Shown here one piece after another: positions 37,560 through 63,741 of a stretch of DNA of 64,000 bases. A program made the translations under genes and the position numbers. Position 1 is the stretch's first letter, and the number at the start of each line of letters is the position of its first letter. The notes under the pieces were generated by a model, which ran no database searches, was not told the DNA's origin, and worked only from the letters and a program-made list of their open reading frames with translations. The stretch is from positions 154,754,001-154,818,000 of the forward strand of contig CM059431.1 in the NCBI GenBank assembly GCA_030390025.1, written 5' to 3'. Origin of the DNA: Squalus acanthias (Eukaryota).

Positions 37560-37731
37560 CAAATTAGACAACTTGCGGGAAAGAATCGCAGAAAGGATGC
37601 TGCTAAACTCCTTCTCGATATGGTGTTAGAAAAAGGAAAGAGGGCAAAACGTATAATGGGTGACGAGTTTCAGAAACTGCAAAACATCAATCCAAAGCTG
37701 AAAGAACTATTGGAAGCAATACAGAGATCAG
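37560..37731 (+). CDS. Exon B1: C-terminal half of a death-fold/CARD-like module (NLR-type, inferred)
   Basis: 'ttttgttttcag|' to '|gtacag', 172 nt, open, phase 0->1: QIRQLAGKNRRKDAAKLLLDMVLEKGKRAKRIMGDEFQKLQNINPKLKELLEAIQRS. 23/57 residues identical to exon B2 without gaps. Confidence 0.8.
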
Positions 37732-39513
37732 GTACAGCAAAATAGTTCACTGACATTAGATATGACTTTAAAAGCTATCCTTAGATATCATATACATAGC
37801 AGACGGTAAAAGGTAAATGCGAGGGGCAGATTTTCATAGGGGTAATCTCGTTAATTCGATATTTTATGATCACGACAGTTATTCATTTTGTTCTTGAAAT
37901 GTGCAATTACGTTTCATAATATCTTCAAAAGAAGGTTATTTCAGATGGAATGTAGGCACCAATTAGATATTTGATCTAACACTAGTTCAAGAGAAAATAT
38001 CGTTTTTTTTAATAAATGGCAGAGCTCATGCTTTTGACCCTAATCAGTGCACTAGTATCAAATTTGCACTCGGCACATATCAGATCACACTATTTGTTCA
38101 TAATATACAGAAAACATTTTATATTATGTTTTAAAGTTTCCAAATATAACAAACCTCCAGTGTAGGAGGATTGCTTTTATTCAAAAGCGTCTGTATCAAT
38201 GACGAAGATACTCAAATGACGTAAAGGCTGTGCTTAATCTACATTGCTGTAAGGTCGTTTTCAATTGCAGAGTGCAAAGCCTAGGTTAGAGTAATACATC
38301 CTGTTACCATTGCCACTCTGCTCCCTAACAGTTGATCAGTTTGAGGCATTCCTCTTTACATACAGTGCTATATTTCTTAAAGTTATTTGTTACTTTTCAA
38401 AAGAATTGACTGCATCTTCCGCAAACCAAAGCCAAAAAATTGCGAATCTCAATTTAGAAATTGACGAGATGCCACAAAACCCGTTTTCACGATGGACTGG
38501 AATTGCACATCCATTCTGTAGTCCATTGTATGCAATGCGTTCTAAATACAGATATTAGGAAATGCAGAAGAGGCTTTGGCTCTTTCCTATAGAAAAAAAG
38601 GCCCAAGGATGACATAATACAGGTTTTTATAGTCATGAGCCATTTCGGTAGGCCAGACGTAGAGAAGATGTTTCCAATTCTTGGGAGTCCAAATCCAGGG
38701 GCCACAAATTTAAGATAGTCACGAATAAATCCGGGTATTTATATTTTCTAGGTTTATAACCTCTCTAAGTGTCTCTAGTTAATCAATTATCTCCGTCCTA
38801 TCTATGTTAAATGTCCTCATTGAATTTTCAATCTCTACTTGAATCGTCATGTCCACATCGTCAGTCTCTTTGGTAAAAACTGAGGCAGAGTATTGGCTAG
38901 AATGTTCTTGTTTTAAAACGGAATATAGGTCTCTTGAACTCTTTGGAACACGTGTTTTAATATTTCACACTGAAGTTCTATCTCTGTGAAGTTTTTTTAC
39001 AGCTTGCGTTCACTAGTTTTATCCTCATCCTCTCATGATTAGCTTTCTTCCAATTAATTACTTCGGTTGTTCTCTTGCTTTTGATTCTCTCAGTCATTAT
39101 CTTAAAACGTATTACGTTGTGATCTATGTTGTTTGGATGCTCTCCTATATTTACTTCTCTTATCTTCCCATTACTAGATCCAGCAGTATTCCTCCTTTGT
39201 TGGGGTTCTTATGTAAACGATACGAAAGAAGTCCTGTACACTGTAAAATCTCTATCTCCATTTTTAATTTCACGACCTCACTTTTGCAGTTTATGGGGAG
39301 AGGGAGGCTGTTCGTTCAAATCTCCCGTGATTATTATTTTATACATATTGCTCATTTCATAGATCTGACTGAATATTTCTCCCTCCACTACCCATACACT
39401 GTTCGGTGCTCTGCAGAATATCCGGTTAGCATAATTTATCGCATATTATATGTATTATAATTATTACTACTTGCAGTAATATAAATCAATAATGCTACCT
39501 TTTCAAAAGGAAA

Positions 39514-40815
39514 GTGTCGAATTTCGCTGCAGATCCTGACCGAGATTTTGCGGGGGGTTAGCGGGCGGAATCGTGGCAAGTCGGGTAGGAAAATGTTTTT
39601 TTGAAAACGGATCGCGAATCCGCTGTCAACCTGCCACAACACGCCTTTACCACATTCGGGTCTGTCATATGAGCAGACCCGAGACTCGGGGGACCCAATT
39701 GAAATAATTAACATCTAGTTAACAGATGGTTAACAGGATTTCCTTTTACTTACTTTTTGACCTTAACTGCATGACGACGGGAAACACGCTGTTCGGGGAC
39801 CACGTCTGTCAACCTGGGCATGAGTTCAGTCGCCATTGCTCCAGCTGATTATTTGCTAGCTTCAAATGTACAGTAAAGGATCCTACCTGTCAGATCATCA
39901 CTTTCCTCAGGCAGAAGCTGTTTCTCAGTCTATTTCCAGCGCAGATTCAGCAGGTTGCAGTCTTTTCAGTCTCCATCCAATCTCATCTCATTGGCACAAC
40001 TCTGTCATCATTGACAGAATGCTTCTGTCATTTCTACTTCACCTGCCAGCTATACCTTCAACATGGTTGCCCTTTATACTGTCTCAACTTGGTCCTCAGA
40101 AACCTACGACGATCAGCCCCAACACCAGGAGCACCAGGCACACCAGCAGCACCAACTCCAACACCAACACTATCCTTTAGCACCTGATGCTGCACAGGAC
40201 CGAGTGCATCAGAACTCGAGTACAGTGCTGCCTTTGGAGGCCAGGGATGGCCTCAGCATGGCCACAATTGCTTCACTTGAGCCTGTGCACCCTCGCTGCC
40301 ACTTGATGCACTAGGTTGGCACCAACCCCACACTTACACAATAAATCATCCCTACAATGTCAAAGCCATTATTTCCACACTCACTAGCATTGCGGGGGTA
40401 CCGTAATGTCTCACCATTCACTGCAACTGAATAAGCCACTTCCAGTTTTGCACAAAGAAAGATCTCAATATTTGACTGCACATTAACAGAAACTTTACAT
40501 GATCAATGGATAAAATACCCAAGTGGCTACCCTTGTCTGCTGTTATTTGGTATGATTTCATTTGGGAGAGCATGAATGTGAGGGGTGACTAGTAAATGGG
40601 GATCTGATAACGTAAATAGAGAGAGAGAGGGTTAGGTGGATGTGCAAGTTATGTTGGTTCGAGTAACATTGTGCAGGAGTAGGGTTGGGCAGACAAAATT
40701 ATGGGAATGTGATCAGAGGTACAGCAGGGTGAAGGCGAGTGTGGCTTTGTTCTAACGTTTGTTTATCTGATGGGATCGTTGAACCGCTTTTGGCACTGCA
40801 CCCATGACCTCCTGA
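39514..40815. mobile_element. Internally deleted PIF/Harbinger element (possible transposase ends on +, Myb/SANT remnant on -)
   Basis: Minus strand 40765-40815 reads RRSWVQCQKRFND. The Q/H-rich ORF 40063-40314 resembles recalled shark Harbinger transposase termini with no catalytic core. Confidence 0.5.
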
Positions 40816-40924
40816 CGATATCTAGCCTATCCAACCCCGTCATAATCATGTACACCCCTATCAAATCACCCCTCAACCTCCTTTGCTCTCATGAAAACAA
40901 ATCCAGCTTCTCCAAAAAGTCAGT

Positions 40925-43900: not shown

Positions 43901-44720
43901 GTCACCTGAGAACACATTTTTAGTATGGAAGCAATTTTTCCTCGGTTCGCAGGGACTGCCTAAAACTTTTGTTTTTGCATACATATAGTCCTGTGCTGCA
44001 GCTTCCCCAGTTTGGCACCTCATTTTTTGGTACGCCTGGTGCGGCTCCCAGCATGCTCTTCTACACTCCTCATTGAACAGGCTTGATGGTAATTTTAGAG
44101 TGAGGGCTATGCCGGGCCATGAGGTTACAGATTGTGGTGGAATGCAATTCTGCTGCTGCTGATGGCCTCATGGTGGCCCAGTTTTGAGCTGCTCGATCTG
44201 TTCTGAATATATCCCATTTAGCACGGTGGTAGTGCTACACAACACGATAGATGGTATCCTCAGTGTGAAGGGGGACTTCTTCTCCACAATGACTCTGCTG
44301 TGGTCACTGCTACCATTAATCTCATGGAGAGATGCATCTGTGACATGCAGCTTGGTGATGACAATTTCAAGCAGATGTTTCACTCATGTTGGTTCTCTCA
44401 CCACCTGATTGGCAGTTATTTCCTTCAAGACTCGTCCAGCTCAGTCAAGTTGGTGCTTTCGAATCACTCTTGGTGATAGACATTGACGTTCCCCACCCAT
44501 AGTACATTCCGTGCCATTGTTACTCTCTTTGATGTTTAATTTGGAACAGTACTGATTCATCAGTTGAGGGAGGGCGGCAGGTGGTAATCAGCAGGACGTT
44601 TTCTTGACCTGAATACATGAGACTTGTTGTCCGGAATCAATTTTGGTGAGTCCCAGGACCAATCCTTCCCGACTGTGCTGCCTCCCCAGATGGGTCTGTC
44701 CTTCCGATGGGACAAGAAGT
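40925..44720 (-). mobile_element. L2/CR1-group LINE ORF2, degraded, split by an RTE insertion
   Basis: ORFs 41782-42150 (NYRHISL, QFGF, LDIKAAFDRV), 41429-41620 (FADN) and 44168-44383 (SDH). Confidence 0.85.
42612..43965 (+). mobile_element. RTE-clade LINE 3' fragment
   Basis: QYADDA remnant at about 42987; ORFs 43163-43534 (YLGS, LLYASETW) and 43553-43909 (KQVLYSEL, KRFKDTLK). Absent from the duplicate at about 59315. Confidence 0.9.
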
Positions 44721-44724
44721 GTAA

Positions 44725-44920
44725 GGACGGTGTTTTCATTCGCTAAAGGAAATTAGTGTACCAGATTACTTTTTACGACAATCCGATAGTTCCATGCTCA
44801 CTGATATTAGCTTTTTATTTAATGAACTGATTTTAAATTCCCCAGCTCAAACTCAAGTCTCTGCATCATCAGTCCAGGTTTCTGGTTTACCTATCCAGTA
44901 ACGTAACCACTATGCTGCTG
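44725..44920 (-). mobile_element. tRNA-derived SINE-like head (duplicate at 60071-60270)
   Basis: The minus strand of the 60270 copy begins 'gTAGCATAGTGGtta' (A-box-like), with 'gagttcgag' (B-box-like) downstream. Confidence 0.6.
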
Positions 44921-45839
44921 ATCCCGGTATTGAATTTATTGGTGACCAAATTATATTTATGATAATTGAACGCATTGTCAGCAGTAGCTTGTACCAGAGC
45001 CCACAGCACATCATTGTGGGTACAAATCAACATTTTAATTCGGTACAATTGGTTCAGCGAATACCTGAGAACCGCAGGTTCCTGCGATCTTTCCTTTGTT
45101 AGAAGGGAAAAGCTAAACTTCTCCGGAGAAACACATATCAAAATCATCTTGGTTAGACCACACTTGAAGTACGGCGCACATTTATGGTGCTCATATTATA
45201 AGAAAAGTGTACAGAGGCAACGGGGTGTTGCAAAAATGATTTAGCATGATATCAGAACTAAGAGGTTATACTGGAAACGAAAAGGCTGAGGGTTGAGCTT
45301 ATAGAAGTATTTATAATTATGAAGTGGTTTGATAGGGTAAACATAGCGAGAATGTTTCCACTTGTGGGCAAGAAGAAAATTGGAAATAATAAATATAAAA
45401 TAGTCATCAATAAATCGAGTACGCAATTCAGGAAGAATGTATTTACCCAAAGGTAGTAAGCTCGTGGAACGTGTTACCAGAATGATTATTTGAGGTGAAT
45501 GGCATAGAGGCATTTAAGGGGAAGTTAGATACGCACATCAGGGAGAAAGGAACAGGAATATATGCTGATAGATGTAGATGAAGCGTGGTAACAGGACGCT
45601 CTTGTGGAGCATTAGCACGGGCATTGAGCCATTGCACTGAATTACCTGTTTGTGTGCTGTACATTCTATGTAATTCTAAGGAATCATTGTCAGTGACAAA
45701 GGTATTTAACATAATGAAATCATGCTAAAGGACTTTAAATCAGCGGCCCAATAACTACGATTGCGAGTGAGATAAAGTGTTATTGTCTAAGTTTTTTTTC
45801 TCTTTTTGTATGCTTTTGTATATATCTGTAGCTATTTGG

Positions 45840-46135
45840 TGTTGCAGGTTGTTTGTCTGTACATTGTGCTTTTGTACATTATGCACTTGTATATTGCGTG
45901 AAATTTGTAGATTTTGCGCTTGTACATTGTGCATCTGTACATTGTATGCTAATACATTATGCATTTGTACATTTGGTGTTTGTGCATATTTGATATTAAT
46001 ATCGAATGTCTCTATATTGTCCATCTGTACATTGTGCAGTTGCATTTTGTGCACCTCTACATTGTACAACTATATATCGTGTGTCTCTAAATTCTGCATA
46101 TATATATTGTATACAGGTGCATCGTGCTCCTATAT
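45840..46135. repeat. Degenerate 15-bp minisatellite (tgtacattgtgcayy); continues at 48940-49100
   Basis: Recurrent 'tgtacatt' at a 15-nt period; gives the NVQMH and CTLC repeat ORFs. Confidence 0.9.
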
Positions 46136-46410
46136 ATTGGGCCTAAATTTGCTGTCAGAGGCTTCCCGCGGGAGGATGACTCCAACAGGCAAGAAATCTA
46201 CGAAATTACCTTTTGCCTCGGCATCCAATAATTTTCAAATTATTGAAAAACTGTATTTTTCGGTTTTTAAAAACTCTTACGTTGATAAAAGCAAATAGCG
46301 CAACTCTCTACCCGCGGAAGCCTTTTTCTCGGGGATGCGGAGGATCTGCAGAGAAAATTGTTGACAGATCGCAAGTTCCGGCTTTAGCGCATGCGCGGCG
46401 CATGTCTAAA

Positions 46411-48880
46411 CATAGAAACATAGAAACATCGAAGATAGGAGCAGGAGTAGGCCATTCGGCCCATCGAGCCTGCTTCGCCATTTGATGAGATCATGGCTGA
46501 TCATCCAAATTCAGTAACCTGTACCTGCCTTCTCCCCATATCCCTTGAAACCTTTACCTTTAAGAAATATATCTAATTCATTCTTGAATATATTTAATGA
46601 CTTGGCCTCAACTACCTTTTGTGGTAGAGAATTCCACAGGTTCACCACTCTCTGGGTGAAGACATTCTTCCTCATTTCTGTCCTAAATGGCTTACCCCTT
46701 ATCCTTAGATTATGACCCCTTGTTCTGGACTCTGCGACCATCGGGAGCATTCTTCCTGCATCGAGTTTGTCCAGACCTGTCAGAATTTTATATGTTTCGA
46801 TGAGATTACCTCTCATTCTTCTATACTCCAGCGGGTATAAGCCCAATCGACCCAATCTCTCCTCATATGTCATTCCTGCCATCCCAGGTTTCAGCCTTGG
46901 GAATCTTCGCTGAACTCCTTCCAAGGCAAGAGCATCCTTCCTCAGATAAGGCGACCAAAACTGCACGCAGTTCTCAAGGTGTGGTCTCACCAAGGCCCTG
47001 TACAACTGCAGCAGGACATCCCTGTTCCTATACTCAAACCATTTCGCTATGAATGCCAATATACCATTTGCCTTCTTCATCGCCTGCTGCACCTGCATGC
47101 TTAGCTTCAGCGACTGGTGCACAAGGACACCCAGTTCTCGTTGCACTACCCCTTCTCCCAATCTATTGCCATTCAGATAATAGTTTGCCTTTCTGTTTTT
47201 AAAATCAAAGTGTATAACCTCGCATTTATCCACGTTATATTGCATCTGCCACGCTTCTGCCCACTCACCCAACCTGTCCAAATCATCCTGGAGTTTCTCG
47301 GTGTCCTCCTCGCTGCACACACGCCCACCCAGCTTTGTGTCATCTGCAAACTTGGAGATATTACATTTAGTTCCCTTATCTAGATCCTGAATGTTTATTG
47401 TGAATAGCTCGGGTACAAGGACCGATTCCTGCAGTACCCCACTAGTGACTGCCTGCCACTCGGCAAAATACCCATTATTTCCTACTCTCTGCTTTCTGTC
47501 CGCCAACTAGTTCTCTATCCACGTCAATACCTGGCCCCCAATCCCATGTGGCTTAACTTTACACGCTAATCTCTTATGCGGGACCTTATCGAAAGCCTTT
47601 TGGAAATCCAAATACACCACATCTACTCGTTCTCTCTTATCTATTTCCCCAGTTACATCCTCAAAAAATTCCAGTAGATTAGTGAAGCACGATTTGCGTT
47701 TTGTAAATCCATGTTGACTTTGTCCGATCCTGTCAATGTTTATCAAATGCCCTGCTATTGCATCTTCAAAATGTACTCTCGCATTTTCCCAACTAAGGAT
47801 GTCAGGCTTACCGGTCTGTTATTCCCCACTTTCTCTCTACCACCCTTTTTGAATAGTGGGGTAACATTAGCTACCCTCCAATCCATGCGTACACTTCCAG
47901 ATTCCATCGAATGTTGGAAGATGATCAGCAATGCATCTACTATTTCTAGGGCCACTTCCTTAAGTACCCTAAGATGTAGATTATCAGGCCCTGGGGATTT
48001 ATCGACCTTCAATCCCGTCAATTTCCCTAACACCATTTCCCTGCAAATACTGATTTCTTTCAGTTCCTCCCTTTCATCAGACCCTATGTTATCCAACATT
48101 TCTGGGAGGTTATTTGTGTCCTCCTTTGTGAAGACAGAACCAAAATATGCATTTAATTGATCTGCCATGTATTTGTTCCTCATTATATCTTCCCCCGCTT
48201 CTGATTGCAAGGGACCTAACTTGATTTCACTAATCTTTTTCTCTTCACATATCTATAAAAGCTCTTACAGTTAGTTTTTATGTTCCCTGAAGCTTACTTT
48301 CATATTCTATTTTCCACTTCTTAATTAATCCCTTTATCCTCCTTTGTTGAATCCTAAACTGATCCCAATCCTCAGGGTAATGTCTTCTTCTGGTCAATTT
48401 ATATGCCCTCTCCTTGGATCTTATGCTATCCCTAATGTCCCTTGTTAGCCACGTTTGAGTCACCCTTTTTGTTTTATTCTTATGCCGCACTCAGATGAAT
48501 AAATTCAGTAGTTCGTCCATGCAGTCTTTGAATGTTTGCCATTGCCTATCCACCGCCAACACTTTGAGTGATATTCCCCAATCAATCCTGGCCAATTCGC
48601 GTCTCAAACCATCTTAGTTTCCTTTATTTAAATTCAGGACCCTAGTCTCTGATTCAACTACATCACTCTCACTCCTAATGAAGAATTGTATCATATTATG
48701 ATCACTCTGACCCAAGGGGCCACGTACAACATGATTGCTAATTAATCCTTTCTCGTTACATAATACCCAGTCTAAGATGTCCTGATCTCTGGTTGGTTCC
48801 TCGACATATTCTTCCAGAAAACCATCCCGTAAACATTCTACGAATTTCACCTCCACAGTATTTTTACTAATTTGGTTAGA
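46411..48880 (-). mobile_element. 5'-truncated CR1 LINE, same subfamily as 25101-29313
   Basis: ORFs 46511-47506, 47507-47746, 47755-48210 and 48278-48490; (catagaaa)n tail. Absent from copy B at about 61530. Confidence 0.96.
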
Positions 48881-49120
48881 CGATTCCCTTCCGGGCACGT
48901 ACACATCTCTTACGCACCTAGTGTTCGCAAATCCCGGCTCAATGTGTGCTTGTACATTGAGCGCACGCACTTTGCGCATCCGTCCATTGTGTACCTGTAC
49001 ATTGTGCACTTGCACACTGTATGCATGTACATTATGCATTTGTACATTTTATGCTTGCGCATTGTGCGGCTGTACATTGTGCGCCCATATATTATGCACA
49101 TGCAAAACAACAACAACTTG

Positions 49121-49906
49121 GGAGTTATTTTGGCCGCAGAGTGAATACAGGCGCTAAATGGTACTTTACTATTGAGAAAGGCCTGTTTGAAAGTCTGGAT
49201 TTAGCTCGATATTTCGGATTAATTGATGATTTTCCTTATTGGAACGTTACTGCAGGCACTAAAACCGAAATCTGCAGGTTTAGCACTCCAGTGCTCATTA
49301 GATGCAATTTTCTGTGAGCTGTGTACATAGCCTGCACTCATTCACTTCCGCTGGAATGCGATGGCTGTGATTGGAAGGCTTTGTCAATGACCAAAAGATA
49401 GAATGCCCAGCTTCTCCGATGTATCACAGGTGGTTCTGGCGGAGGAAGTAGGGAGAACAGTAGGGGTTTCCTCTATCTGCAGTGGGAAGGAGTCCAAGGA
49501 GGTAGCTGAAGTGCCGCATCTGGGAAGAGATCACACATGAGTTCAAAGCAGGACGCCTGGACACAGGACATGGCTCCAGTGCTGCAGGAAATTTAATGAC
49601 TTGACCCATGTGGTCAAAGTAAGATCCCATCTCACAAACACACTTTTCAATAACTGCACCATCACAACCTCAACGCGCTTCATCCAGCATCTATCTCAGC
49701 ACTGACATTCACACACCAAACACTGTTGCATGCTTCACTGACACTACTCACACCTCAGAAACATCTCACAGCTCTTCAGCAATATGAGGCATCACACACA
49801 CAAAATTACACCTGCCTTTCAGAATCACACTCTTTCTCTGCAAGACCCCATATTGACCATCTCTTTACCTCTTTTAGCGCCTAAAGTATGTGGCCAAAAT
49901 AGCCCC
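49121..49906 (+). mobile_element. Harbinger derivative with TIRs carrying a Myb/SANT-like pseudo-exon (49361-49618)
   Basis: TIRs 'ggagttattttgg' / 'ccaaaatagcccc'. Reads RMPSFSDVSQVVLAEEV...WEEI...RTWLQCCRKFNDLTHVVK|gtaaga with frameshifts. Confidence 0.75.
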
Positions 49907-50919: not shown

Positions 50920-51089
50920 AAGATGCAGATACTAAAACCTGAGTAATGTTGGCGAGCTGCACGGATATCCAGCTGCACAGAGTTATCGTTTTCCACCGTC
51001 AGAGACTAGAACAGTCGATTGAAAAATTCGTGGAGGCTGTTAGTCAGTCGCTTTTAGATGCAGAAGTGTTTACTGAAACAGATCATAAG
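50920..51089 (+). pseudogene. Exon A1: N-terminal half of the CARD-like module with an in-frame stop
   Basis: 'ttctcttttacaccttgacag|' to '|gtatac', 170 nt, phase 1->0: DADTKT*VMLASCTDIQLHRVIVFHRQRLEQSIEKFVEAVSQSLLDAEVFTETDHK. TGA at 50940-50942. Confidence 0.8.
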
Positions 51090-51364
51090 GTATACTACAT
51101 ATATGGTGGAATTGCATAATATTAAATGATTTATACAGTTGACTGTTTAGATTGACTGTATTCGGTGCAACCCAACCATAAAAACAGTAATCTAAGATGT
51201 ACTGGCTTAACTTCAATAGGGACGTGAAATTGCATCCGGTGCAAATGTAAACAACATTTGAAGTGCTCTTCTGAGATACTTCTCTGGTAACTTAACTGTT
51301 CTGTAATTTTGAACGAATGCGTAAAATAATAATGGAACAGCATCTCATGCTACATTCATTAGTT

Positions 51365-51770
51365 CCTTATGGCAACGTCATTGGCCCAACTCCAGTTAGC
51401 TTTTTATCCCAAATTGACAATCAATGACCATCCCTCACAAGGTCAGAAATGGGACTGTTTCCTGATGATTACACAATGTTGAGCACTATTCGCAAATCTC
51501 ACATACTGAAGCAATCCATGACCACATGAAGCAAGACCTGATCAACATGCAGATTTAAACGGATAAGTGGCAAGTAAAATTCGCGTTGCACACGTGCCAG
51601 GCAATGACCATCTCAAATATAAATGTCTAGTCGCCTCCGCTTTGCATTTAATGACATTACCATGTGCGAACCTGCCACCATACAAATCCTTGGGTTCACT
51701 GTAAAACCGGCACTGACAATTCACTGCCAAACGTCTTGCAGTTACTTTAGTACAAATGGCCCCATTTCTA
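51365..51770 (+). mobile_element. Degraded L2/CR1-group RT C-terminal fragment
   Basis: Remnants 'ctgtttcctgatgattacaca' (FADD region), DKWQV, CQAMTISN and FNDIT...ILGFT. Confidence 0.75.
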
Positions 51771-54334
51771 CAGGGATTGGGTTTACTCCAGATTCTGAAA
51801 GCGGACATAGATTGCATCCTATCAATTGAGCAATTATTAGAAATTCCAGGATTGTTGCCAACCAGAACGCCTCTAAATGAATAATTTAATAAGGCACGAC
51901 TAGCAGCGAAATCATCACGTGCCTCAGTTGAACGCCAGTGGAAAACCTGGAGCTATATAAACATTGCAATCGCTAAACATTTCTATTTTCACGAAAAGAA
52001 ATTAACTGACGTATGGAAGCTAAGCTTTTCGAATTTCTCCGCGTTCAATCGGCCGAGAATTTCCGTCCATTCTCCATCAAAGCAGCCTCGTGTTTCCAGT
52101 ATATAACCCGATTGGTGTGAGCCACTGCCGTTTGCCCGGATTTCTAGGAAATTCTACAGAACTTATCCAAGTCATTGTTTCCATTCCTCTGCCTCTCTCT
52201 GTCTTTGAAACACGTTACCTGTCACAGTTTTTACATTAAACTGAACACGTCCTTCATTGGCCATCTAGCACAATTTGCATTGTCACACGTATCACCCAGC
52301 AGTCGCGAAATTCATCCAGTCTGTGGGATATGCAACCGACTGCCTTGTGTGCATGCCAGATCATGTCACGCCCCTTATTGGCCCAATTCTCGGTGGCATC
52401 ACCGATACCGGGCTCTCCTCAGGTATTATAATCCTCTAATGAAAAGACTGACATAATAAACCATTTGTAAAAAAAATCTCATGACTTTTCTGTGGTGTCC
52501 ATATTCTCCCTTTTCCAAATAACTCCTACAGTTATGTAACATATATCTAAAGAAAAAACAAATTGGAAATATAGCTGTTTAATTCAAGGCACATATTGTA
52601 AGGGATATGATACAAATAAATTAACAGCTACGTGGCTTATTTCAGGGCAGGTTTGGGAGCTAAGATGTCTTGTTACAAAGCATTAATTATTTATTGAATT
52701 TAAAACAACATAGGGAGGATGTATTATTAAAAGATTCACTGCAGCAAGGAACTCAGGACTGATATGAGCAATTATTCACAATTTTAATCTTTACGTTTGC
52801 GGTTTAGCAGAATAAAGGAACTTTTTAACTGTATGAGCTTATTATCATGAAACAGCTGGGGGAAGGGATAGAATAGATATACAGAAACATTTTAGAAAAT
52901 GCAGCAATAACAGTAACGGATTGATCAGTGACTTTAAGTGTCCAAAGTATAGAAGCAACGTAATTGGGTAAGGGAGTCCTTTGTGTCTGCAGCGTGTCCA
53001 GGACATTATACAGATGAATACTGTTTCAGGACAACAAGGAAGGAATCAGTATTGGATCTATTTCTAGAAACGGGGAGGGGCTAGTATTTGAGGTAAGGTT
53101 AGTGGAACATCTAAGAAAGAATTGTAAAAGTTGTTTTATTATGAATTGTAAAAGGTAACGTTGCAATCAAAGCAATAAGTAGTTTACAGGAATCAATCTA
53201 ATTTCAACGAGACTAAACAACTGGAAAATATATATTGGGAAATGGTCAGAGTGAGCCGCAGGGAAGCAATCGGTTGCTTCCAATAAGTAGAAGATTCCCA
53301 CAAAAGATAAATAAATTACACAAGAATAAAAGAGGTGCAACACAAACTATAATTGCTTGGACGTGCATAGAAAATCAACTAAACATGAGATTGTAAAACA
53401 AATGCAGGGTTGTAGGGCTGATTATATAAAACAAAACAAGGAAACGTATATAACATAAAAAAGAAGCCAAAACGTTAAAAATGTGAGAAATGAATGAATG
53501 GCAGGTGACAGAATTAGAAACAATTATTACACTACTTAGACATTTCAAGGGAAACCGTTACACAAAGGACGGAGCTCTTCAGAAATTAATAAGACATGGT
53601 CCATAGACAGAATGAAGGAGTGACTGATAAGCTTATGCTACTGTTTAGATAAATGAAAGTGATAATTGGAATGAATGAAAGACTCATTGAAGTAAATAGA
53701 AAGAAAATGGAACGGGGCATAAAGCGGGCCGCCGTTTCACTTCAGCCCCTTTCGCGCTACTGGCAAACAGTACTTTCACCTACATATTTATGGTTTTCAA
53801 GTTGTGTAATTAGATCTTCTGAAAACAGATTGTAAACTTTCATAATATTACTGTTATTTCAAACACTAATGCTTGGTTTGGTCGAATACTAATCCTGCAA
53901 ATGTAACTTTCCCCTTTTATTCAGCACTTTACCCTTTTCCATCTGTCAGCTGAGAAAATACAGTTTCCCTGGATGACTCAACGCTGCTTCTCTCTATTTC
54001 TGCAACTTCTTCCAGCCCTAAAACCCTCCCTGATCTCTGCTCTCATCCAATTCTAGCCTTTTGCGTAACCTCGATTTCCTTGCCCCACTATTGGCGACAA
54101 TGCCCCCAGCTGCTGCGAACCTAAGCTTTGAAATTCCACCGCTAATCCTCACCGGCTCCCGAGCACTTACTGCTCGTTTAAGACGCTCCTTAAAACTTAC
54201 TTCTTTGATCAAACTTCTGGTCACCCGATTGTGAGCTTTTCTGTTCATTCATCTCATAAAGAGAGCGAAAAAGAGAAAAGTCGCTTATCAGCTGATTATG
54301 TACATTATTGAATCAATATGATTTCATTTTTTAG

Positions 54335-54506
54335 AGAATCAGAACAATAGTTGAAAGTCACAGCAGAAGCGACGCTTCCCGAAACATTTTCGATACGGTG
54401 CTGGAAAAGGGAGCTCGGGCAGGAAGAACAATCTGGAACATATTGTTTCTACTGCAGAATAAAAAACCCGAGCTGAGAGAGACACTTTCAGAGATACAGA
54501 ACAAAG
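54335..54506 (+). CDS. Exon B2: C-terminal half of the CARD-like module
   Basis: 'tttcattttttag|' to '|gtacaa', 172 nt, open, phase 0->1: RIRTIVESHSRSDASRNIFDTVLEKGARAGRTIWNILFLLQNKKPELRETLSEIQNK. Same length and phases as B1. Confidence 0.82.
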
Positions 54507-55079
54507 GTACAAAGGGAGAAAGTTACCTGGAAGGTAGGTGGTATCCAAATCTAACATGTAAAAACGATTATGTTTACTGTCAGACTAACAAATTAATTTT
54601 TTATGGCAAGGAACTTATTTTACGTTAAATCTTGTGAGGATGTAATTCAACATGCGCTGGGAAATAAAACAGGCATGTTCGCCTTTGTCGACCGTTACAA
54701 CAAACTGACTTTCAATTCAAGTTTATTCGGGCGCAGTGTACAATAGGCGATCGATGCGATACCGCCTGTATTATGTCTTCGGGAAAAAAACAGCGGTATC
54801 GCATCTGCTGCTCGTTCAGCGCTCGGTCCATGTTGCCTTCTATTGACTTCAATAGAATTGAATATAGGGCGACTTGAAGTTGGTGTGGTTTGTGTTCTGC
54901 TCTGGTCCTATAATGTCTTTAGCTTTTTGAAGCGGAGGTTTCAACTTGCGCATTATTGTTTCTCGTGGGTGTAAGAAAGCTCCACTGCATTATAAAAAAA
55001 AAAAATACCATATTTGGGAATGAAGTGGAGCTTTCTTGCACCCATGAGAAACACCAATGCGCATATTGAACCTCCTCTT

Positions 55080-55170
55080 CTATATATATATATATGTATA
55101 TATATGCATTTTTTTCAGGCATATATCTATCTATCTCCATATATAAACATATATGTGTGTTTTTGTGTAT
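55080..55170. repeat. Imperfect (TA)n microsatellite
   Basis: tatatatata tatatgtata tatatg... Confidence 0.9.
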
Positions 55171-55204
55171 ATCGGGCGGATGCTGATACCTTTAAAACCA
55201 TTCC

Positions 55205-55795
55205 CAGCTGACACCATACATACCTGGCCAGGTCCCGATATACTTCAAAAGCAGAGACACAGCAGACAGTTTGCTCATACACTGTGAAACCACATGCTAA
55301 CAGGATTCTGATAAACAGTGAATCCACGCACATATCATGACGTTTCCTTATAGGCTCTGAATGATTGTACACATCTGGCTGAATGTTGATACACTAAATC
55401 TTCGATACTCATCTGGCAGGATCCCAGTAAATTATATCCTCATACAAACCTGGCAGGGGCCTGATACACTCTAAATCTCGATACTCATCTGGCATGATCC
55501 AGATACATTGTGAATCCCCATACATAGGTGGAAGTATCCCGATACATTTTGAAGACCGAGCAGGATCCTGATACATCGTGGAACGCTATACACAGCTGGA
55601 AGGATCCCGATACGCGGTGAAACCCCGTACACAGCTGGCAGAGTTACTTAATACTGAAATCCCATACATGTGGGAGGATCCTGATACATTGTGATAACTG
55701 ACAAATAGCTGGCAGGATCCTGATATAATTTGAAACGCAAATTACACTTGCCAGAATCCCGATACTCTGAATCCGTATAAACAACTGGCAAGCTG
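55205..55795. repeat. Degenerate ~39-bp minisatellite
   Basis: Approximate consensus tacacagctggcaggatcctgatacattgtgaaacccca. Confidence 0.8.
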
Positions 55796-56249
55796 CCAAT
55801 ATAATACTCATTGCTATGGAGAAGCTGGGGTTAATTTCCTTCAAACAGAGAAGGTAAAGAAGAGATTTGATAGAGGTGTTCGAAATCATTAACGGTTTTG
55901 AGATAGTAAATAATGATAAACTGTTTGCAGTGGCAGCAAGGTTTGTCACAAGATAAAATATATTCAGGATGATTGGCAAAACAAACACAGCTGAAAATGA
56001 GGAAACATTTTTTGATGCAGCCAGTTCTCCTGACGTATACTGCAATGCCTGACATGATGGTGCAAGCATATTCAATAGTAACTTCCGAAAGGAAACGGGA
56101 AAAATACTTGCAGGGATTTTCATAGGGAAATATTGGAAAAGTTGGGCAGTGGTACTAATTGGGAACCTCTACCAACGAGCCGGCACAGGCACGGTGTGCT
56201 ATATCATTCTATGATTCTATGATAAAAGCGTGAAATGACAGTGCAGGCT

Positions 56250-57700
56250 AATTATAGGATATGTGATATGTGGGACTTTTATGACAGTAAGACTGCCCCG
56301 AAATGCAAATCTGCAGAAAATGTCTGTTTCTTTAGACACTCCAGCTTAGATTCTTTGAGCTGGAGTGCGAGGAAGCGAGATTCTAACACTTAAAAAAGGG
56401 GGAGGAATTTCTGGACAGTTTTCTTCAGAGTACAGTCAAACCTCAGAGGAAAGCACAGGTGCAGGAAAGGGAAAGTGTTACTGCCAGTAGTGTATGGGGA
56501 ACAAGGGAATATAGAGGAGGAGGTCCAGCAGGCACTGGTCTTCTCCAACGGACACAATTTACTTGATAGCTGAGAGGATCAGAAGAAAAACAACGGGGAG
56601 GACATTTATAATCTTGACCTTAGCACCGTGGAGCAGAGGACTTTTCCAATCGTGGCGTGTGAGGAGCAGATTCGAAACGTAGTAGTTAAAAGAGATTCAA
56701 TAATTAGGGTGATAGATAGGAACCTATTTATCCAGAGTAGAGAGTCCCGAAGGTTATGTTTTCTACCTGATGACAGAGTAAGGGATATCTCAATGTGACG
56801 GGAAAGTAATTTTAAAAGGGTGAGAGGAGATCTTGTTGACGTGTTCCATGTCCGGATCAAAGATAGAGGGGAGAAAATGGTTAAACTCCTCTGGATGGAG
56901 TATCAGAATTTAGGAGCTAAATTAAAAATCAGCACTCAAATGGTTGTAATGTCAGGGTTACAAACAGATCACGAAGGTGAACACGTGGCTAAAGGCGTGG
57001 GAAGAGTGGTTCAATTTATAGGGACACCGTCACCAATAATGCGATAGGAAGAAGTGTGTGTCATTGGGAAACGCTGCATCTGAATCGGGGTGGGACCAAG
57101 TTCCTAGCGGAAAGGATAAATAGGCTGATAAAACGGACTGTAATCTAGTAAATGGAGGGGGAAGTGGGAGACTCAGACAGGAGCAAAACTAAAAACAATA
57201 GCTTCAAGAATTTTTAGAAAGTGATAAGTGCTGGTTCAAGTCACAAACAGTGCTATAAATACTACAGGTGAAGAGAATATAAAACAGCTAAAGCAGTTAC
57301 AGCAGGAGTGATAAATCAGAAATGTGTCAAGTTAATCGGTGTGCGAAAGGAAATATCAGGACAAAGGGACAGGTTAGGATCTCTTGCACAAAAATGAGTT
57401 TTATATACTAAATCACGAAGTATAGGAAATAAACTGACTGAATTATAAACTTTAAGGAAATGGCTTGGTAGCCATTACTGAGACATGGCTGTAAGCTGGT
57501 CATGATTAGGGGTCAAATACTCCGGGTCATAAGGTCTTTAAAAAAATCTTGAGAAACGGGAAGAGAAGGATGGGTAGTATTTTTCATTAAATATAATATT
57601 ACAGCATTAGGAAGAGAGAATATAGGTACGGGAAAGGAATCGGCGGAACTATGGTTAGAAATTAAAAACAAAAGAGGATTTAAAACTGTCTACAGTCCCC
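56250..57700 (+). mobile_element. Old CR1 5' portion (ORF1 and start of ORF2), degraded
   Basis: VVVxRDSIIR remnant at about 56680; AITETWL 'gccattactgagacatggctg' at 57471. Confidence 0.65.
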
Positions 57701-57712
57701 TTGATACCAGCA

Positions 57713-59205
57713 ATCATAGTATCATAGAATGATAGGCAGTTACAGCACGGAATGAGGCCATTTCGGCCCATCGTGTCCGTTCCGGCCAACAAAGAGCTAT
57801 CGAGCCTAATCCCACTGCTTAGCTCTTGCCCCGTAGCCCTGCAGGTTAGAGCATCCCAAGTGCACATCCAAGTACTTTTTAAATGTGGTCAGGATTTCTG
57901 CCTCGAACACCCTTTCAGGCAGTGAGTTCCAGATCCCCACAACCAACTGGGTGAAGAAATTTGCCCTCAAATCCCCTCTAAACATTCCCCCAATTATTTT
58001 TAGTCTGTGCACCCTGGTTTTTAACCAGTCTGCTAAGGGAAATAGTTCCTTTCTATTCACTTTATCTGTACACCTCAATATGGTCTCCCATCAGCCTCAT
58101 CTGTTCCAAGGAAAACAGACACAGCCTATCCAATCTTTCCTCATAGCTAACATTCTCTACTCCCGGCAAAATCCTTGTAAATCTCCTCTGTACCCTCTCT
58201 AGTGCAACCAAATCTTTCCTGTAATGTGGTGACCAGAACTGCACGCAGTACTCTAGCTGAGGCCTAACTAGTGTTTTATAAATTTGAAGCATAACCCCCC
58301 TGCTCTTGTATTCTATGCCACGGCTAATAAAGGCAAGCATTCCGTATGCCTTCTTAACTAACTTATCTGCTTGCCCTGCAACCTTCAGGGATCTGTGGAC
58401 ATGCACTCCAAGGTCCCTTTGTTCCTTTACACTTCACAGAGTACTACCCTTTAATGTGTATTCCCTTGCCTTTTTAGTTCTCCCCAAATGCATTTCCTCA
58501 CACATCTCCGGATTGAATTCCATTTGCCACTGTTCTGTCCACCTGAGCAATTCATTGCTATCTTCCTGTAGTCCACAGCTTCCTTCTTCAGTATCAACAA
58601 CACAGCCGATTTTAGTATCATCTGCAAACATCTTAATCATAGCCCCTATATTCAAGTCAAAATCGTTGATATATACCACAAAAAGCAAGGGACCTAGTAC
58701 TCAGTCCTGCGGAACCCCACTGGAAACAGCCTTCCAGTTACAAAACCACCCATCAACCATTGCCCTCTGCTTCCTGTCTCCGAGCCAGTTTTGAATCAAA
58801 ATTGACACTTTGCCCTGGATCCCATGGGCATTTAACTTCGTGACCAGTCTGCCATGTGGAACCTTATCAAAAGCTTTGCTCAAGTCCATATACACTACAT
58901 AAAACGCACTACCCTCATCTACCCTCCTTGTTACCTCCTCAAAAAATTCAATCACGTTTGTCAGACACGACCTTCCCTTAACAAATCCGTACTGACTATC
59001 CTTGATTAATCCGTGTCTTTCTAAATTAAGATTTATCCTGTCCTTCGTAATTCATTACAATAATGTTCTCACCACCGAGGTTAGGTTGACTGGCCTGTAA
59101 TTACTCGCTCTATCCTTTACTCCCTTTTTAAACAAGGGTACCACATTAGCAGTTCTCCAGTCTCCGGCACCAAACATGAAGCCAGAGAGGATTGAAAAAT
59201 GATGG
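57713..59205 (-). mobile_element. 5'-truncated CR1 LINE
   Basis: ORFs 58701-58955, 58434-58688 (FADDTK), 58062-58406 and 57806-58078. Confidence 0.93.
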
Positions 59206-61256
59206 GCAGTTGTTTAATGGTTCACCGCCATTCACGACTGGATGTCGCAGGACTTCAGAGCTTTGATCTAATCCGGTGATTGTGGGATCACTTAGCCCTG
59301 TCTAAAGCAAGCTGCGTCCGCTGTTTTTCATGCATGTAGTCCTGTGTTGCAGCTTCCCCAGTTTGGCACCTCATTTTTAGGTACGCCTGGTGAGGCTTCC
59401 GGCATGCTCTTCTACACTCCTTATTGAACAGGCTTGATGGTAAAGGTAGAGTGAGGGATATGCCAGGCCATGAGGTTACAGATTGTGATGGAATGCAATT
59501 CTGCTGCTGCTGATGGCCTCATGGATGCCAAGTTTTGAGCTGCTCGTTCTGTTCTGAATATACCCCATTTAGCACGGTGGTAGTGCTACACAACACGATA
59601 GATGATGTCCCCAGTGTGAAGGGGGACCTCCTCTCCACAATGACTGTGCTGTGTTCACTGCTACCAATACTCTCATGGATAGATGCATCAGTGACATGTA
59701 GCTTGGTGAGGACGAGTTCAAGTATGTTTTTCGCTCGTGTCGGTTCTCTCACCACCTGTCTGGAAGTTATGTCCTTCAAGACTCGTCCAGCTCAGTCAGT
59801 ACTGGTGCGTTCGAGCCACTCTTGGTGATAGACATTGACGTTCCCCACTCAGAGTATATTCTGTGCTTTTGTTACTCTCAGTGCGGTTCAACATGGAAGA
59901 GGACTGATTCATCAGCTGAGGGAGGGCGGCAGGTGGTAATCAGCAGGATGTTTTCTTGCCCTGAATCCATGAGACTTGGTGTCCGGAATCAATGTCGAGG
60001 ACTCCCAGGACCACGCCTTCCCGACTGTGCTGCCTCCCCTGGTGGGTCTGTCCTGCCGGTGGGACAGGAGGGGTAAGGACGACAGATTTCCTTCGCTAAA
60101 GGACATTAATGAACGAGATGATTTTTTGCGAAAATCTGATAGTTCCATGCTCACTGATATTAGCTTTTTATTTAATTAATTGAATTTAATTTCCTCAGCT
60201 CGAACTCAAGTCTCTACATCATAAGTCCAGGTTTCTGTTCACTAGTCCAGTAACGTAACCACTATGCTACTGATCCCGGTATTGAATGTATTGTTGAATA
60301 TCTTGTATTTTTGATAATTGGACGCATTATCAGATGTAGCACGTGCCATGGCCCACAGCACATCATTATGCGTAACATTCAACATTATAAATCGGTACAA
60401 TTGATCCGGGGAATACCTGAGAACCACAGGTTCCTGCGATCTATCCTGTTTTAGAAGGGAAAGGGTAAACATTTCCGGAGAAACACATATCAAAATCATC
60501 TTGATTAGTCCACACTTGAAGTACGGCGCAAATTTCTGGTGGTCATATTATAAGAAAAGTGTACAGAGGCAACGGGGTGGTGCAAAAATGTCTTTACCCA
60601 CAGGTAGTAAGCACGTGGAACGTGTTCCCAGAAGGATTAGTTGAGGCGAATTGCATAGAGGCATTTTATGTGAAGCTAGATAAGCACATCAGGGAGAAAG
60701 GAATAGGATGATATGCTGATAGATTTAGATGACGAGGGGTAACAGGACGCTCGTGTGGAGCATAAGCAACGGCATGGAGCGATTGCACTGAATGACCTGT
60801 TTGTGTGCTGTAAATTCTAATACCTCTATGGAATCCTTGTCAGTGACAACGGTATTTACCATTATAAAACCCTGTTATAGGACTGTAAATCAGCAGCCCA
60901 AATACTACGATTGCGAGGGAGACCAAGTGTGATTGTCTATGTTTTCTTTTTTTTGTCTGCATGTGTTTATATATGTAGCTATTTGGTGGTGCAGGTTGTT
61001 TGTCTGTACATTGGGCGTTTGTACATTATGCACTTGTATATTGTGTGACCTTTGTAGATTGTGCGCTTGTACATTGTACATTTGAACATTATATGCTAAT
61101 ACATTTTGCACTTGTACATTGCGTGCTTGTGCATAGTTGATCTTTATATCGAATGTCTCTATATTATCCACCTGTACATTGTGCAGCTATATATCGTGTT
61201 TCTCTACATTCTGCAGATATATATTGAGTGCATGTGCATCGTGCTCCGATATATTG

Positions 61257-61599
61257 GGGCTAAATTTGCTGTCGGAGGCTTCCCGCGGGAGGATGACTCC
61301 GACAGGCAAGAAATCTACAAACTTACCTTCTGCCTCGGGATCCAGTAATTTTCAAATCATTTAAAAAAACATATTATTCAATTTCTTAAAACTCTTACGC
61401 TGTTAAAAACAAATAGCGCAACTCTCTACCCGCGGAAGCCTTTTCCAAGGGGATGCAGAGGATCTGTGGAGAAAATTCTTGACACATAGCAAGTTCCGGG
61501 TTTATCGAATGCGCAGCGCATGCCTAAAACGGGAACTTGAGTGTCCCCTACGGGCAGGTACACATCTCTTACGCACCTAGTGTTCGCAAATTCCGGCCC
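61257..61599. mobile_element. MITE inside the 15-bp minisatellite (counterpart 46139-48940 is split by a CR1)
   Basis: Ends 'ggggctaaatttgc' / 'gcaaattccggccc'. Confidence 0.65.
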
Positions 61600-61755
61600 A
61601 ATGTGTGTTTGTACATTGAGCGTCCGCACATTGTGCATCCGTCCATTGTGCACCTGTACATGTGCATTATGCATTTGTACATGTTGTGCTAGTGCATTGT
61701 GCGGCTCTACATTGTGTGCCGAATAATTGTGCACCTATAAAAAAGCAACAACCTG

Positions 61756-62557
61756 GGAGTTATTTTGGCCGCAGAGTGAAAACAGGCGCTAAATGGGTAC
61801 TTTACTAATAAGAAACGCCTTTTTGAAATGTGGATTTATCTCGCTATTTTCTTTTAATTCTTGATTCTCATGATTGGAACGTGCCTGCAGGCGCTGAAAC
61901 CGAAATCTGCAGGTTTAGCACTCCAGTGCTGATTACATGCAATTTTCCGCCAGCTGTGTATGTAGCCTGCACTCATCCACTTCCGCTGAAGGTGTGGATT
62001 GCGATGGCTGTGAGTGGAAGGCTTTGACAAGGAGCAAAAGATAAGCTGCCCAGCTTCTCCGGTTTGGCATAGGTGGTTCTGGCGGAGGAAGTAGGGAGAA
62101 GAGGAGGGGTTTCCACTATCTGCAGTGGGAAGGAGGCCAAGGAGGTAGCTGATGCGCCGCATGTGGGAAGAGATCACACATGAGTTCACAGAAGGAGGCC
62201 TGGACTCAGGACATGGCTCCAGTGCTGCAAGAAATTTAATGACTTGACCCATGTGGTCAAAGTAAGATCCCATCTCACACACACACTTCTCAAAAACTGC
62301 ACCATCACAAACTCAACACGCTTCATCCAGCATCTAAGTCTGCACTGACATCCACACACCAAACATTGTTGCATCCTTCACCGGCACTACACACACCTCA
62401 GACATAGCTCACAGCTCTTCAGCACTGTGAGGCATCACACACACAAAATTACACCTGCCAATGCACTCTTTCGGAATCACACTCTTTGTCTGCCAGACCC
62501 CATCTTGGCCACCTCTTTACCTCTTTAGCGCCTAAAGTATTCGGCCAAAATAGCCCC
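61756..62557 (+). mobile_element. Harbinger derivative with Myb/SANT pseudo-exon (62004-62261), copy B
   Basis: Same TIRs as 49121-49906; MWEEI...RTWLQCCKKFNDLTHVVK|gtaaga, with stops. Confidence 0.75.
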
Positions 62558-63571
62558 CAGGTCTTTAGCTGCAACGCCGGCTTAGGCCGTGTTGAAGCGC
62601 AAGACGCCATCAGCGGAAATGGGTTAGTGCAGGCTACATATACAGCTCCACGAAAATTGCGTCTATGCAGCACTTGCCAAACCTGTAGGTTTCTGGTTAG
62701 CGCCTGCCGGCATGTTCAAATCATGGCAATCATCAATGAGACTGAAAATTGCGTGCTCAGTTAGAACTTTCAAATAGGCATTTCTTATTAGTACAACCCC
62801 CACTTAGCACCTGTTACATCCGTTGGTTTAAATTACCCTCATTATGTATTAGCTATTTAGGCAAACATGCAACAGCCACGACCATCTCTGATTTCTCAGG
62901 AACATCTTGTATTTCCAAGCCATTAAATCCAAACTTATATGACCGTCCGGATCATTTATAATTTAATTTACTGGACAAATGCTGCTGTTATCCAGCTTAC
63001 TCGATACTTCAAACAATCTTCGGGCACTGCCCGTTATAAACTTGGGTTTCTTTGGAGCTGTACTGCTTAAATTCAAATTCATCCTCACTTCCACTTATCC
63101 GTGATCCACTTGCTCACGGACCACTTATGACAAATTGGTCATTTGTTAAATTCTCCTACTCATCTACAAATCCCTCTACGATCTCGTCCACCTTATCTAT
63201 GCAGAGTTCTTCACATCTCCACTGTTTCACAACTATTCCCTCGATGTGGTCCCCAGTGTATCTCTTCTTCTGTTCCGGACTCCAGCCACAGACTCCCATC
63301 ACATTGGCTGAAACTCCGTTCCTATGGGCCTCCGTCTCGCTACTTCTTACTTACATTAAACATTCACCGAATGTTGTAAGGCCTGGGTCCTTCCTTAATA
63401 TACCAAAAAGAGACAGTGTTAATTGTTAATTCATCATCTGTAAGGCACCTCTGGCCGTTTCACTGCATGGATGGCTTTAAAGAATCGTCGTTGCTATAGC
63501 AATTGTTTAAGAGTATTCACTGTTTCGTAGCGGGCACAGCATTTAATCTGTTCTCATTTACACCTTGACAG

Positions 63572-63741
63572 AAAATGTAGGTAGTAAAATCTTACTAATG
63601 TTGGCGAGCTGCACGGATATCCAGCTGCACAGAGTTATCGTTTTCTACCGTCAGAGACTAGAACAGTCAATTGAAGAATACGTGGAGGCTGTTAGTCAGT
63701 CGCTTTTAGATGCAATCGTGTTTACTAAATCAGTTCATAAG
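63572..63741 (+). CDS. Exon A2: N-terminal half of the CARD-like module, open
   Basis: 'ttctcatttacaccttgacag|' to '|gtatgc', 170 nt, phase 1->0: NVGSKILLMLASCTDIQLHRVIVFYRQRLEQSIEEYVEAVSQSLLDAIVFTKSVHK. Confidence 0.82.

Follow-up and report, generated by a model that had tools for sequence, protein, structure and literature searches.

Four exons on the forward strand of a 64,000-nucleotide stretch of the Squalus acanthias genome (the window) probably encode the halves of tandem CARD-type domains that front a segmentally duplicated NLR locus of cartilaginous fish, the copy in the window being likely a pseudogene and its intact neighbours likely poly-CARD receptors. The window covers the 5′ portion of one such locus, which lies in a 6-Mb cluster. 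The first-pass annotation had proposed a receptor, or a CARD-only regulator, with at least three tandem modules; of this interpretation the CARD identity, the NLRP3-like kinship, the in-frame tandem modules and a downstream NACHT exon are all upheld, whereas an intact receptor at this position is not.

The four segments lie where they had been placed, each preceded by AG and followed by GT, with lengths of 172, 170, 172 and 170 nt as first given. B1 (37560..37731) is the second half of a CARD-like module, is of the 172-nt ancestral type with the donor CAG/GTACAG, and has lost its A exon. A1 (50920..51089, 170 nt) forms the first half of module 1, of which B2, beginning at 54335, open and with the donor AAG/GTAGGT, forms the second half, while A2 (63572..63741, 170 nt, open) is the first half of module 2. 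The phases assigned to these exons (1 to 0 and 0 to 1) and the gap-free identity of B1 and B2 at 23 of 57 residues were also correct; the open chain from B1 to A1 and the 172-nt length of B2 were not. Codon 7 of A1 is an in-frame TGA (50940-50942), at which the upstream paralog U has TTA, and A1 further contains an ATG at 50946 and an alternative in-frame acceptor at 50929. Because of this TGA the B1 to A1 join ends at aa 65, or at aa 62 if the alternative acceptor is used. A1 and A2 are identical at 42 of 56 residues and 153 of 170 nt, and the alignment of 43970-51348 with 59322-64000 on the same strand (84-88%) indicates that an intragenic duplication spanning 43970..64000 produced the second module. 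In a tree of B exons, B1 forms its own clade with its two paralogous copies (support 100/100), its 172-nt type being that of single-module relatives.

At least 150 B-like matches (430 candidates, of which 150 were scored) and at least 117 A-like ones (443 candidates, likewise with 150 scored) occur in the genome, the bulk of them within C7:153.7-159.7 Mb; given such repeated matches, the A and B exons are not chance sequence. Each module consists of an A exon of 170 or 161 nt, in phase 1 to 0, and a B exon of 199 nt, in phase 0 to 1, so that the modules chain in frame, ending in the phase-1 NACHT exon. B2 itself is very probably 199 nt long (54335-54533). Indeed, 68 of the 71 repeat-type B exons show a GT at +199 and only 50 show one at +172, and the B segment is 66 aa long in P0005, an uncharacterized Scyliorhinus torazame protein (XP_072354261.1, 1405 aa). 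With a 199-nt repeat-type B exon the cassette becomes 369 nt or 123 aa (360 nt where the +9 acceptor is used), and not the 342 nt or 114 aa previously given. Stops occur in 7/71 A exons and 4/71 repeat-type B exons, which are other broken copies.

A CARD or death-fold identity is backed by Pfam, an AlphaFold2 model, VIA-align and Foldseek, the model being that of a homologous P0005 module which stands in for the window's own A+B peptide and is 55-57% identical to A1/A2 and 37-39% to B1/B2. The model is all helical (pLDDT 87.8), with an extra N-terminal helix at residues 3-13 that lies mostly outside the CARD match. Against 48,161 chains in VIA-align, its best nine rows reach Z 9.8-10.8 (rmsd 1.8-3.6, 80-102 aligned residues), eight of them being CARDs by title (ARC, NLRC4, ASC, NOD1, caspase-1, SP100) and the first-ranked bearing only the title ‘unknow protein 4’; death-domain rows do not exceed Z 7.8. 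The top 11 Foldseek rows are all CARD entries, with probabilities of 0.69-1.00 and none at E ≤ 0.001, and the best score in the ESM Atlas (0.77, a lead only) is likewise to a CARD cluster. The P0005 module is thus predicted to adopt a six-helix death fold nearest to the CARDs, and the N-terminal PYD implied by the NLRP names of database models is disfavoured by this model, in which CARDs score Z of about 10 against Z 6.3 for the AIM2-PYD. At the level of sequence families, the whole P0005 protein matches the Pfam CARD at 40.4 bits, above the cut-off; B1 and B2, each a half-domain exon, score 19.2 bits (E 0.0013) and 15.1 bits against PF00619, for which the cut-off is 23.9. The A exons gave no CARD match in Pfam, nor did P0004, P0020, P0030 or P0035; no PYD family matched these four proteins or P0005; and the B profile, searched against PDB sequences, returned two unrelated weak matches and no CARD.

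Beyond the window the same strand carries B3 (C7:154820904-154821102), S and A0-type exons (C7:154865317-154869363), modules 3 and 4 (C7:154870904-154882825), a broken NACHT exon (C7:154891101-154893553) and three short LRR-region exons (about C7:154895268-154896146). The expected NACHT exon is therefore present, 73 kb past the window and in the same orientation, though broken. It is 80% identical in nucleotides to the NACHT exon of U, which matches PF05729 at 113 bits together with NOD2_WH and NLRC4_HD2, such that a NACHT with Walker A, winged helix and HD2 is found downstream at this locus. The short three-exon LRR tail that follows is shared by the window copy (W) and U, as in P0004 and P0005. 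The block A0-B1-A1-B2-A2-B3 occurs three times in the cluster, in W, U and W3, and these blocks are collinear at 91-97%, with B2 and B3 clustering by position with their U and W3 counterparts in the B-exon tree. Paralog U has 17 modules and an intact NACHT in 2,660 codons with 0 stops, its module 13 being open via the +9 acceptor. Arrays in this genome have 8-17 modules, and several NACHT exons are broken. We propose that copies die often, in a birth-and-death mode of evolution, and that module number varies by unequal crossing-over.

The window copy itself is damaged along its length. A low-complexity spacer exon of the S type, which precedes the CARD exons in relatives, survives as a remnant at 32870..33114 with a stop and without its 5′ part; it was recognised with nhmmer and an S profile (in which the copy itself is included), by a 71% blastn match to the S exon at C7:154865380, and from translations. 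A deletion with its breakpoint at 34376..34378 has removed about 850 bp, including A0, the divergent A-type exon that belonged with B1, which is open in U (C7:154554892-154555055, 164 nt) and frameshifted in W3. The NACHT exon has a frameshift, an insertion of about 720 nt and a lost donor, and with these lesions and the A1 stop the frame from the effector domain through NACHT is not intact. The A1 stop, the A0 deletion and the broken NACHT together make it likely that the window copy, with five disabling lesions, is a pseudogene.

Evidence of splicing comes from a paralog. One 383-nt contig, present in both X1 and X2 (two runs presumed to be RNA, both from one study), runs from the end of a B exon with the exact +199 donor into an A exon entered at the +9 acceptor and on into the start of the next B exon. 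Family modules are therefore spliced B to A to B in a contig that is probably a transcript of a paralog other than the window copy. Similarity of the spliced contigs to U is 82-89%, and they fit none of the examined copies fully (71 A exons and further exons), the best agreeing at 8 of 11 diagnostic letters and A1 and A2 at 5 of 11. No RNA run carrying the NACHT exon of U was listed, the joints seen being only B-A-B and A-B joints of a paralog. For window positions 50500-64000, no joint at exon ends of the window copy stands among the 15 listed (of 26), and the A1 and A2 bins are uncovered in three same-species contig sets, which has no bearing on expression.

Three other accounts of the locus deserve consideration. 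The first, possible though doubtful, divides it into two genes: the window block S-A0-B1-A1-B2-A2-B3 would be a 3′-truncated duplicate, lacking any receptor body and still probably dead, while the broken NACHT would form part of another gene, one of two modules, that starts at the S exons in the 50-kb gap, 47 kb past the window. In V2, as in a single-module gene, S and A0-type exons do signal the 5′ end, the tree places B2/B3 apart from B4/B5, and in U the same 5′ block precedes a different, 15-module array, collinearity with W stopping about 11 kb past B3. Against this division, the intervening exons have phases compatible with a continuous frame from B3 to A3 (S1 and S2 with a 270-nt option in phase 1 to 1, then A0′ in 1 to 0 and S3 in 0 to 1), W3 has the same order across the whole stretch, and searches found no terminal or membrane-anchor exon after B3. 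A TM exon of the Cetorhinus type was not found with a Cetorhinus query, and the genome's own TM exon gave 20 matches, none of them within C7:154.18-154.97 Mb. A candidate membrane anchor, the hydrophobic frame at position 39043 of the window, was rejected, since its acceptor is weak and it matches repeats elsewhere.

The second account, which we regard as unlikely, makes the window copy a working CARD-only regulator, translated from the ATG at 50946 into a decoy of two to four CARDs lacking a working NACHT. Modules 1 (from this ATG) to 4 are open, with all their splice sites intact: the frame of A1 (from the ATG) with B2, A2 and B3 spans 237 aa, and across all four modules no stop is met before a point 137 aa inside the NACHT exon. 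With a dN/dS of 0.69 for these modules, a truncated product is possible. Values across all arrays (0.45-1.02, from pooled, non-independent pairs) are weak evidence of selection even on intact ones. A methionine stands at codon 9 in 29/71 A exons, and other species have models that lack a NACHT (P0076-P0078 and P0080, some maybe fragments). A1 is nonetheless disfavoured as a natural first coding exon, because relatives have coding exons upstream of the A exon, which is thus an internal one and begins at a phase-1 acceptor; of the corresponding exons here, S is broken and A0 deleted, the lack of a terminal exon after B3 counts again, and a transcript in which more introns follow a frameshifted NACHT would be prone to nonsense-mediated decay. 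A broader version, in which the cluster comprises receptors with a variable number, up to 17, of exon-duplicated CARDs joined by splicing from one module to the next, and in which broken copies including that in the window are recycled as decoys of two to four CARDs from the in-exon ATG, seems improbable as a whole, while we lean towards its poly-CARD part at the level of the family.

The last account, the one first claimed, has B1-A1-B2-A2 chained as 342-nt cassettes into an intact receptor of three or more modules; it is refuted for the assembled sequence and retains hardly any probability. The splice dinucleotides and phases fit, and in U a chain of this kind is open onwards from the first A exon of the repeat type, but A1 has its stop, the A partner of B1 is deleted, NACHT is broken in three ways and B2 is 199 nt long.

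Returning to a likely dead window copy beside likely poly-CARD receptors, a working mode for the latter can be suggested. NLRC4-CARD and ASC-CARD form filaments, and the RIG-I 2CARD nucleates MAVS. From established NLR biology, NACHT oligomerisation in intact members would expose many CARDs at once, which might then nucleate the CARD filament of a caspase or adaptor, giving a poly-CARD receptor a lower threshold, or more partner options, than a receptor with one CARD; unequal crossing-over would alter the module number, and copies would often die. If true, sharks would possess a tunable CARD-polymer signalling system, in which up to 17 CARDs in one frame act as a pre-assembled filament seed on one polypeptide. 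Such a family would make testable how the number of CARDs sets the threshold of inflammasome-like signalling, and bears on what sharks use in place of true NLRPs. As the window copy is probably dead, what it contributes itself is the corrected exon model (a 199-nt B exon and two in-frame acceptors for A), a clear case of birth and death, and the contig evidence for tandem splicing.

The proposed kinship with elasmobranch NLRP3-like models is borne out by the protein relatives of the NACHT exon: A and/or B segments are found in 37 of 75, and all 37 are from cartilaginous fish. A transposon origin of the exons was rejected, there being no transposon match and the named relatives all being NLR-type models. 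B2 alone, searched against longer proteins, yielded 0 of 32 candidates, and among 10 representatives looked up, two, P0079 (Arctic cod) and P0082, have short partial matches and are unconfirmed as relatives. Database models from other sharks and rays have 2-5 modules. P0004, a Mustelus asterias ‘NACHT, LRR and PYD domains-containing protein 3-like’ of 1186 aa, has three tandem A+B modules and P0005 has five, as here. Both resemble the cluster copies in a NACHT region that is 48-50% identical and in the short LRR tail; they differ in being automatic gene models with fewer modules than the 8-17 of this genome's arrays, and the window copy is broken. The Rhincodon typus models P0034 and P0043 have one A+B module each. 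In the accessible part of PMC8455134, sharks are described as being without true NLRPs, and a whale shark NLR expansion close to the NLRPs is proposed as a source of inflammasome activators that evolves by birth-and-death or concerted evolution; the N-terminal domain and tandem CARDs are absent from that part of its description, and kinship with the present family is by best match.

A literature search with subscription journals outside its coverage found no description of a poly-CARD shark NLR architecture. To our knowledge, known CARD-bearing NLRs and RLRs have one or two CARDs. CARD16, CARD17 and CARD18 are expressed CARD-only proteins with a single CARD derived from caspase-1, duplicates truncated by stops; they would offer an analogue for the proposed decoy role of the window copy, from which they differ in their single CARD and their demonstrated expression. 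NOD2, the tandem CARDs of which are described in the accessible part of PMC3314614, RIG-I/MDA5, NLRC4 and NOD1 resemble this family in placing one or more CARDs ahead of an oligomerising sensor, and the P0005 module model matches the CARDs of NLRC4, NOD1 and RIG-I. They differ in having one or two CARDs and only 8-19% sequence identity. A two-exon symmetric cassette amplified up to 17 times would further set the present family apart from them.

The window's four CARD-half exons (B1, A1, B2 and A2) were recovered with their AG and GT ends as the first-pass annotation had drawn them, together with the 23 of 57 residues identical between B1 and B2, and the four-exon feature is real. Across the 3.7-Gb genome, B2 drew 430 candidates and A2 443; with 150 scored in each case, at least 150 B-like and at least 117 A-like matches were obtained, the majority of which lie within C7:153.7-159.7 Mb (C7 being contig CM059431.1) in arrays alternating A,B,A,B. 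Two parts of the earlier model have to be revised. The B1 to A1 chain, proposed as open, is interrupted by an in-frame TGA at codon 7 of A1 (50940-50942), where the paralogous copy U has TTA, such that the B1+A1 join meets a stop at residue 65, or at residue 62 if A1 is spliced at its second in-frame acceptor, 9 nt inside the exon. Moreover, B2 had been given 172 nt and the cassette 342 nt; since the repeat-type B donor lies 27 nt further 3', with GT at +199, B2 is 54335-54533 and the module 369 nt, the proposed phases standing because both B lengths end in phase 1. Among the 71 repeat-type B exons (three B1-type exons being excluded from the count), 68 have GT at +199 and 50 have it at +172; those that lack it at +199 are two frameshifted copies and one with a mutated donor. 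B1 is a separate and older exon type: the three exons of this kind group in a clade by themselves (support 100/100), and in four single-module relatives GT stands at +172, never at +199. The A exons have two in-frame acceptors, with AG at 0 in 58/71 and at +9 in 65/71, and none of the 71 lacks both; in the array V5 (C7:158025765-158089491, L101-L107) all nine A exons are without the first AG and keep that at +9. A 15-bp minisatellite recurs in duplicated intron segments of the window (45858-45973, 48985-49082 and 61005-61134).

With respect to fold, the Pfam CARD profile (positions 41-83) matched B1 and B2 below its cut-off (E 0.0013 and 0.024), the A exons gave no Pfam CARD match, and a sequence search of the PDB found no CARD. 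A structure was predicted for a homologous module of the Scyliorhinus torazame protein XP_072354261.1, rather than for the window's own exons, to which it is 55-57% (A1/A2) and 37-39% (B1/B2) identical. The model has seven helices (pLDDT 87.8); in VIA-align against 48,161 chains nine rows reached Z 9.8-10.8, eight of them titled CARD, with death domains at most at 7.8 and AIM2-PYD at 6.3, and in Foldseek rows 1-11 were CARD entries, none with E <= 0.001. Both comparisons place the homologous model closest to CARDs, as had been proposed, and make a good case that the module would adopt a CARD fold.

Beyond the window the locus continues with a further B exon, B3 (C7:154820904-154821102), and, 44 kb after it, two low-complexity spacer (S) exons, an exon of the divergent A0 type that precedes B1 in paralogs and a short S-like exon (C7:154865317-154869363), then two further modules (C7:154870904-154882825), a NACHT exon (C7:154891101-154893553) that is 80% identical to that of U, and three short LRR-region exons. 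The downstream NACHT exon sought in the first-pass annotation is found, but is disrupted in this copy: 1 nt is missing directly behind Walker A, a repeat of ~720 nt has inserted and left a 10-nt target-site duplication, and the donor has changed from GT to TT. Upstream of B1, the window aligns collinearly, at 91-97%, with the blocks of U and of a second paralog, W3. Both of these blocks keep a ~850-bp segment, deleted from the window at 34376-34378, with a divergent A exon that is open in U and carries a frameshift in W3; B1 is orphaned because this segment was lost with its A exon. With five lesions (A exon deletion, A1 stop, NACHT frameshift, insertion and donor loss), of which we infer that neither the deletion nor the insertion can be put down to simple read errors, the window's copy is probably dead. 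The window block and the NACHT exon may be two genes rather than one, as exons of the S and A0 types are found at 5' ends elsewhere, although the phases of the intervening exons also permit read-through. That the copy acts as a decoy of two to four CARDs, translated from the ATG at 50946 in a frame open for 237 aa through B3, is an alternative to be kept in view, though an improbable one.

Other elements surround these exons. An 875-aa open frame (29791-32418), which we take to resemble a LINE endonuclease-reverse transcriptase, lies in a ~3-kb insertion missing from U and W3, and the window's introns are filled with many further decayed LINE pieces. Some 8-9.6 kb before the window lies what is left of an old NACHT exon, inverted in part and containing numerous stops (L021:350-1978, C7:154744350-154745978); it is likewise found in front of the B1-type exon of U. 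A short hydrophobic frame 1.3 kb after B1 (39043-39120) is conserved across the three paralogous blocks; it was rejected as an exon, as it resembles repeats elsewhere.

Among the neighbouring copies, U (C7:154573320-154714368) carries 17 modules, and its NACHT exon of 1,720 nt is open. Module 13 of U has lost its first acceptor AG; when this module is joined at +9 instead, the chain runs 2,660 aa without a stop. Within the stretches of genome examined, V1 has 12 complete modules (nearly identical to U, with stops), V2 eight (NACHT open), V5 nine (NACHT broken) and V6 nine (a membrane-anchor exon behind), while V4, with five, and W3, with three, are broken. Stops occur in 7/71 A exons and 4/71 repeat-type B exons, and pooled within-array dN/dS, from non-independent pairs, is 0.45-1.02 (0.69 in the window's copy, 0.80 in U), which would suggest weak constraint. 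A near-identical copy of U's 3' array and NACHT (C7:153719773-153800256, L061-L070; 99% in amino acids), in which three B exons contain stops (one via a frameshift) and two acceptors are altered, is a very young duplicate that is already decaying. Several CARD arrays adjoin a 130-nt, phase 1->1 exon encoding a hydrophobic, probably membrane-spanning helix (L112:2895-3020 (-), L016:1520-1655 (+)), in some cases on both the upstream and the downstream side of one array (C7:155216149 and 155300043, for example), which suggests membrane-anchored poly-CARD genes without NACHT; its 20 matches are at C7:154.0-159.3 Mb and C2044, none in the window's locus, where the queries used found no membrane-anchor exon. 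Across the whole assembly there are 481 NACHT candidates, distributed over C7, C29 and many small contigs, with 95/95 of those scored above the Pfam cut-off, which amounts to a very large NLR expansion.

A1 and A2 are uncovered in three same-species contig sets, and no run is listed as containing the U NACHT, neither of which says anything on expression. Contigs from two runs of one study (X1 and X2, tentatively classed as RNA) were compared with four U exons at 80% likeness. In a 383-nt contig present in each run, a B exon ends at place 951, which coincides exactly with the +199 donor; next come the 161 nt of an A exon joined at its +9 acceptor, and then a B exon from its first base. A contig of 1,202-1,211 nt has the same A to B joint. 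These contigs are direct evidence that tandem module splicing occurs in the family. They are 82-89% alike to U and share at most 8 of 11 diagnostic A letters with any examined copy (5/11 for A1 and A2). In the longer contigs (1,211 and 1,202 nt), the ~930 nt that precede the A exon are not matched on L056, and may contain the 5' exons of an expressed family member.

The NLR relatives of the window's exons are from cartilaginous fish. A representative protein search gave 77 matches; on rescanning 76 proteins, a single B segment was present in 59, and several shark and ray proteins had two or three, and 37 of 75 NACHT relatives in other species had A or B segments. A Mustelus asterias NLRP3-like model has three modules and the S. 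torazame protein five, the database models with two to five modules carrying automatic names only.

The family is built of symmetric two-exon cassettes, with the window block triplicated segmentally, lesions in the window's copy, U open across its 17 modules and a paralog spliced in tandem. Intact members would most likely oligomerise through NACHT and present many CARDs together as a filament seed, for a caspase or adaptor, by analogy with NLRC4/ASC filaments and RIG-I/MAVS. Unequal crossing-over would alter the number of copies, which would often die.

No paper on poly-CARD shark NLRs was found in the literature searched. In the whale shark an expanded NLRP-related NLR family is described, for which birth-death or concerted evolution is suggested; the parts of that account consulted do not mention tandem CARDs (PMC8455134). 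The window's copy is probably a dead member of its family.
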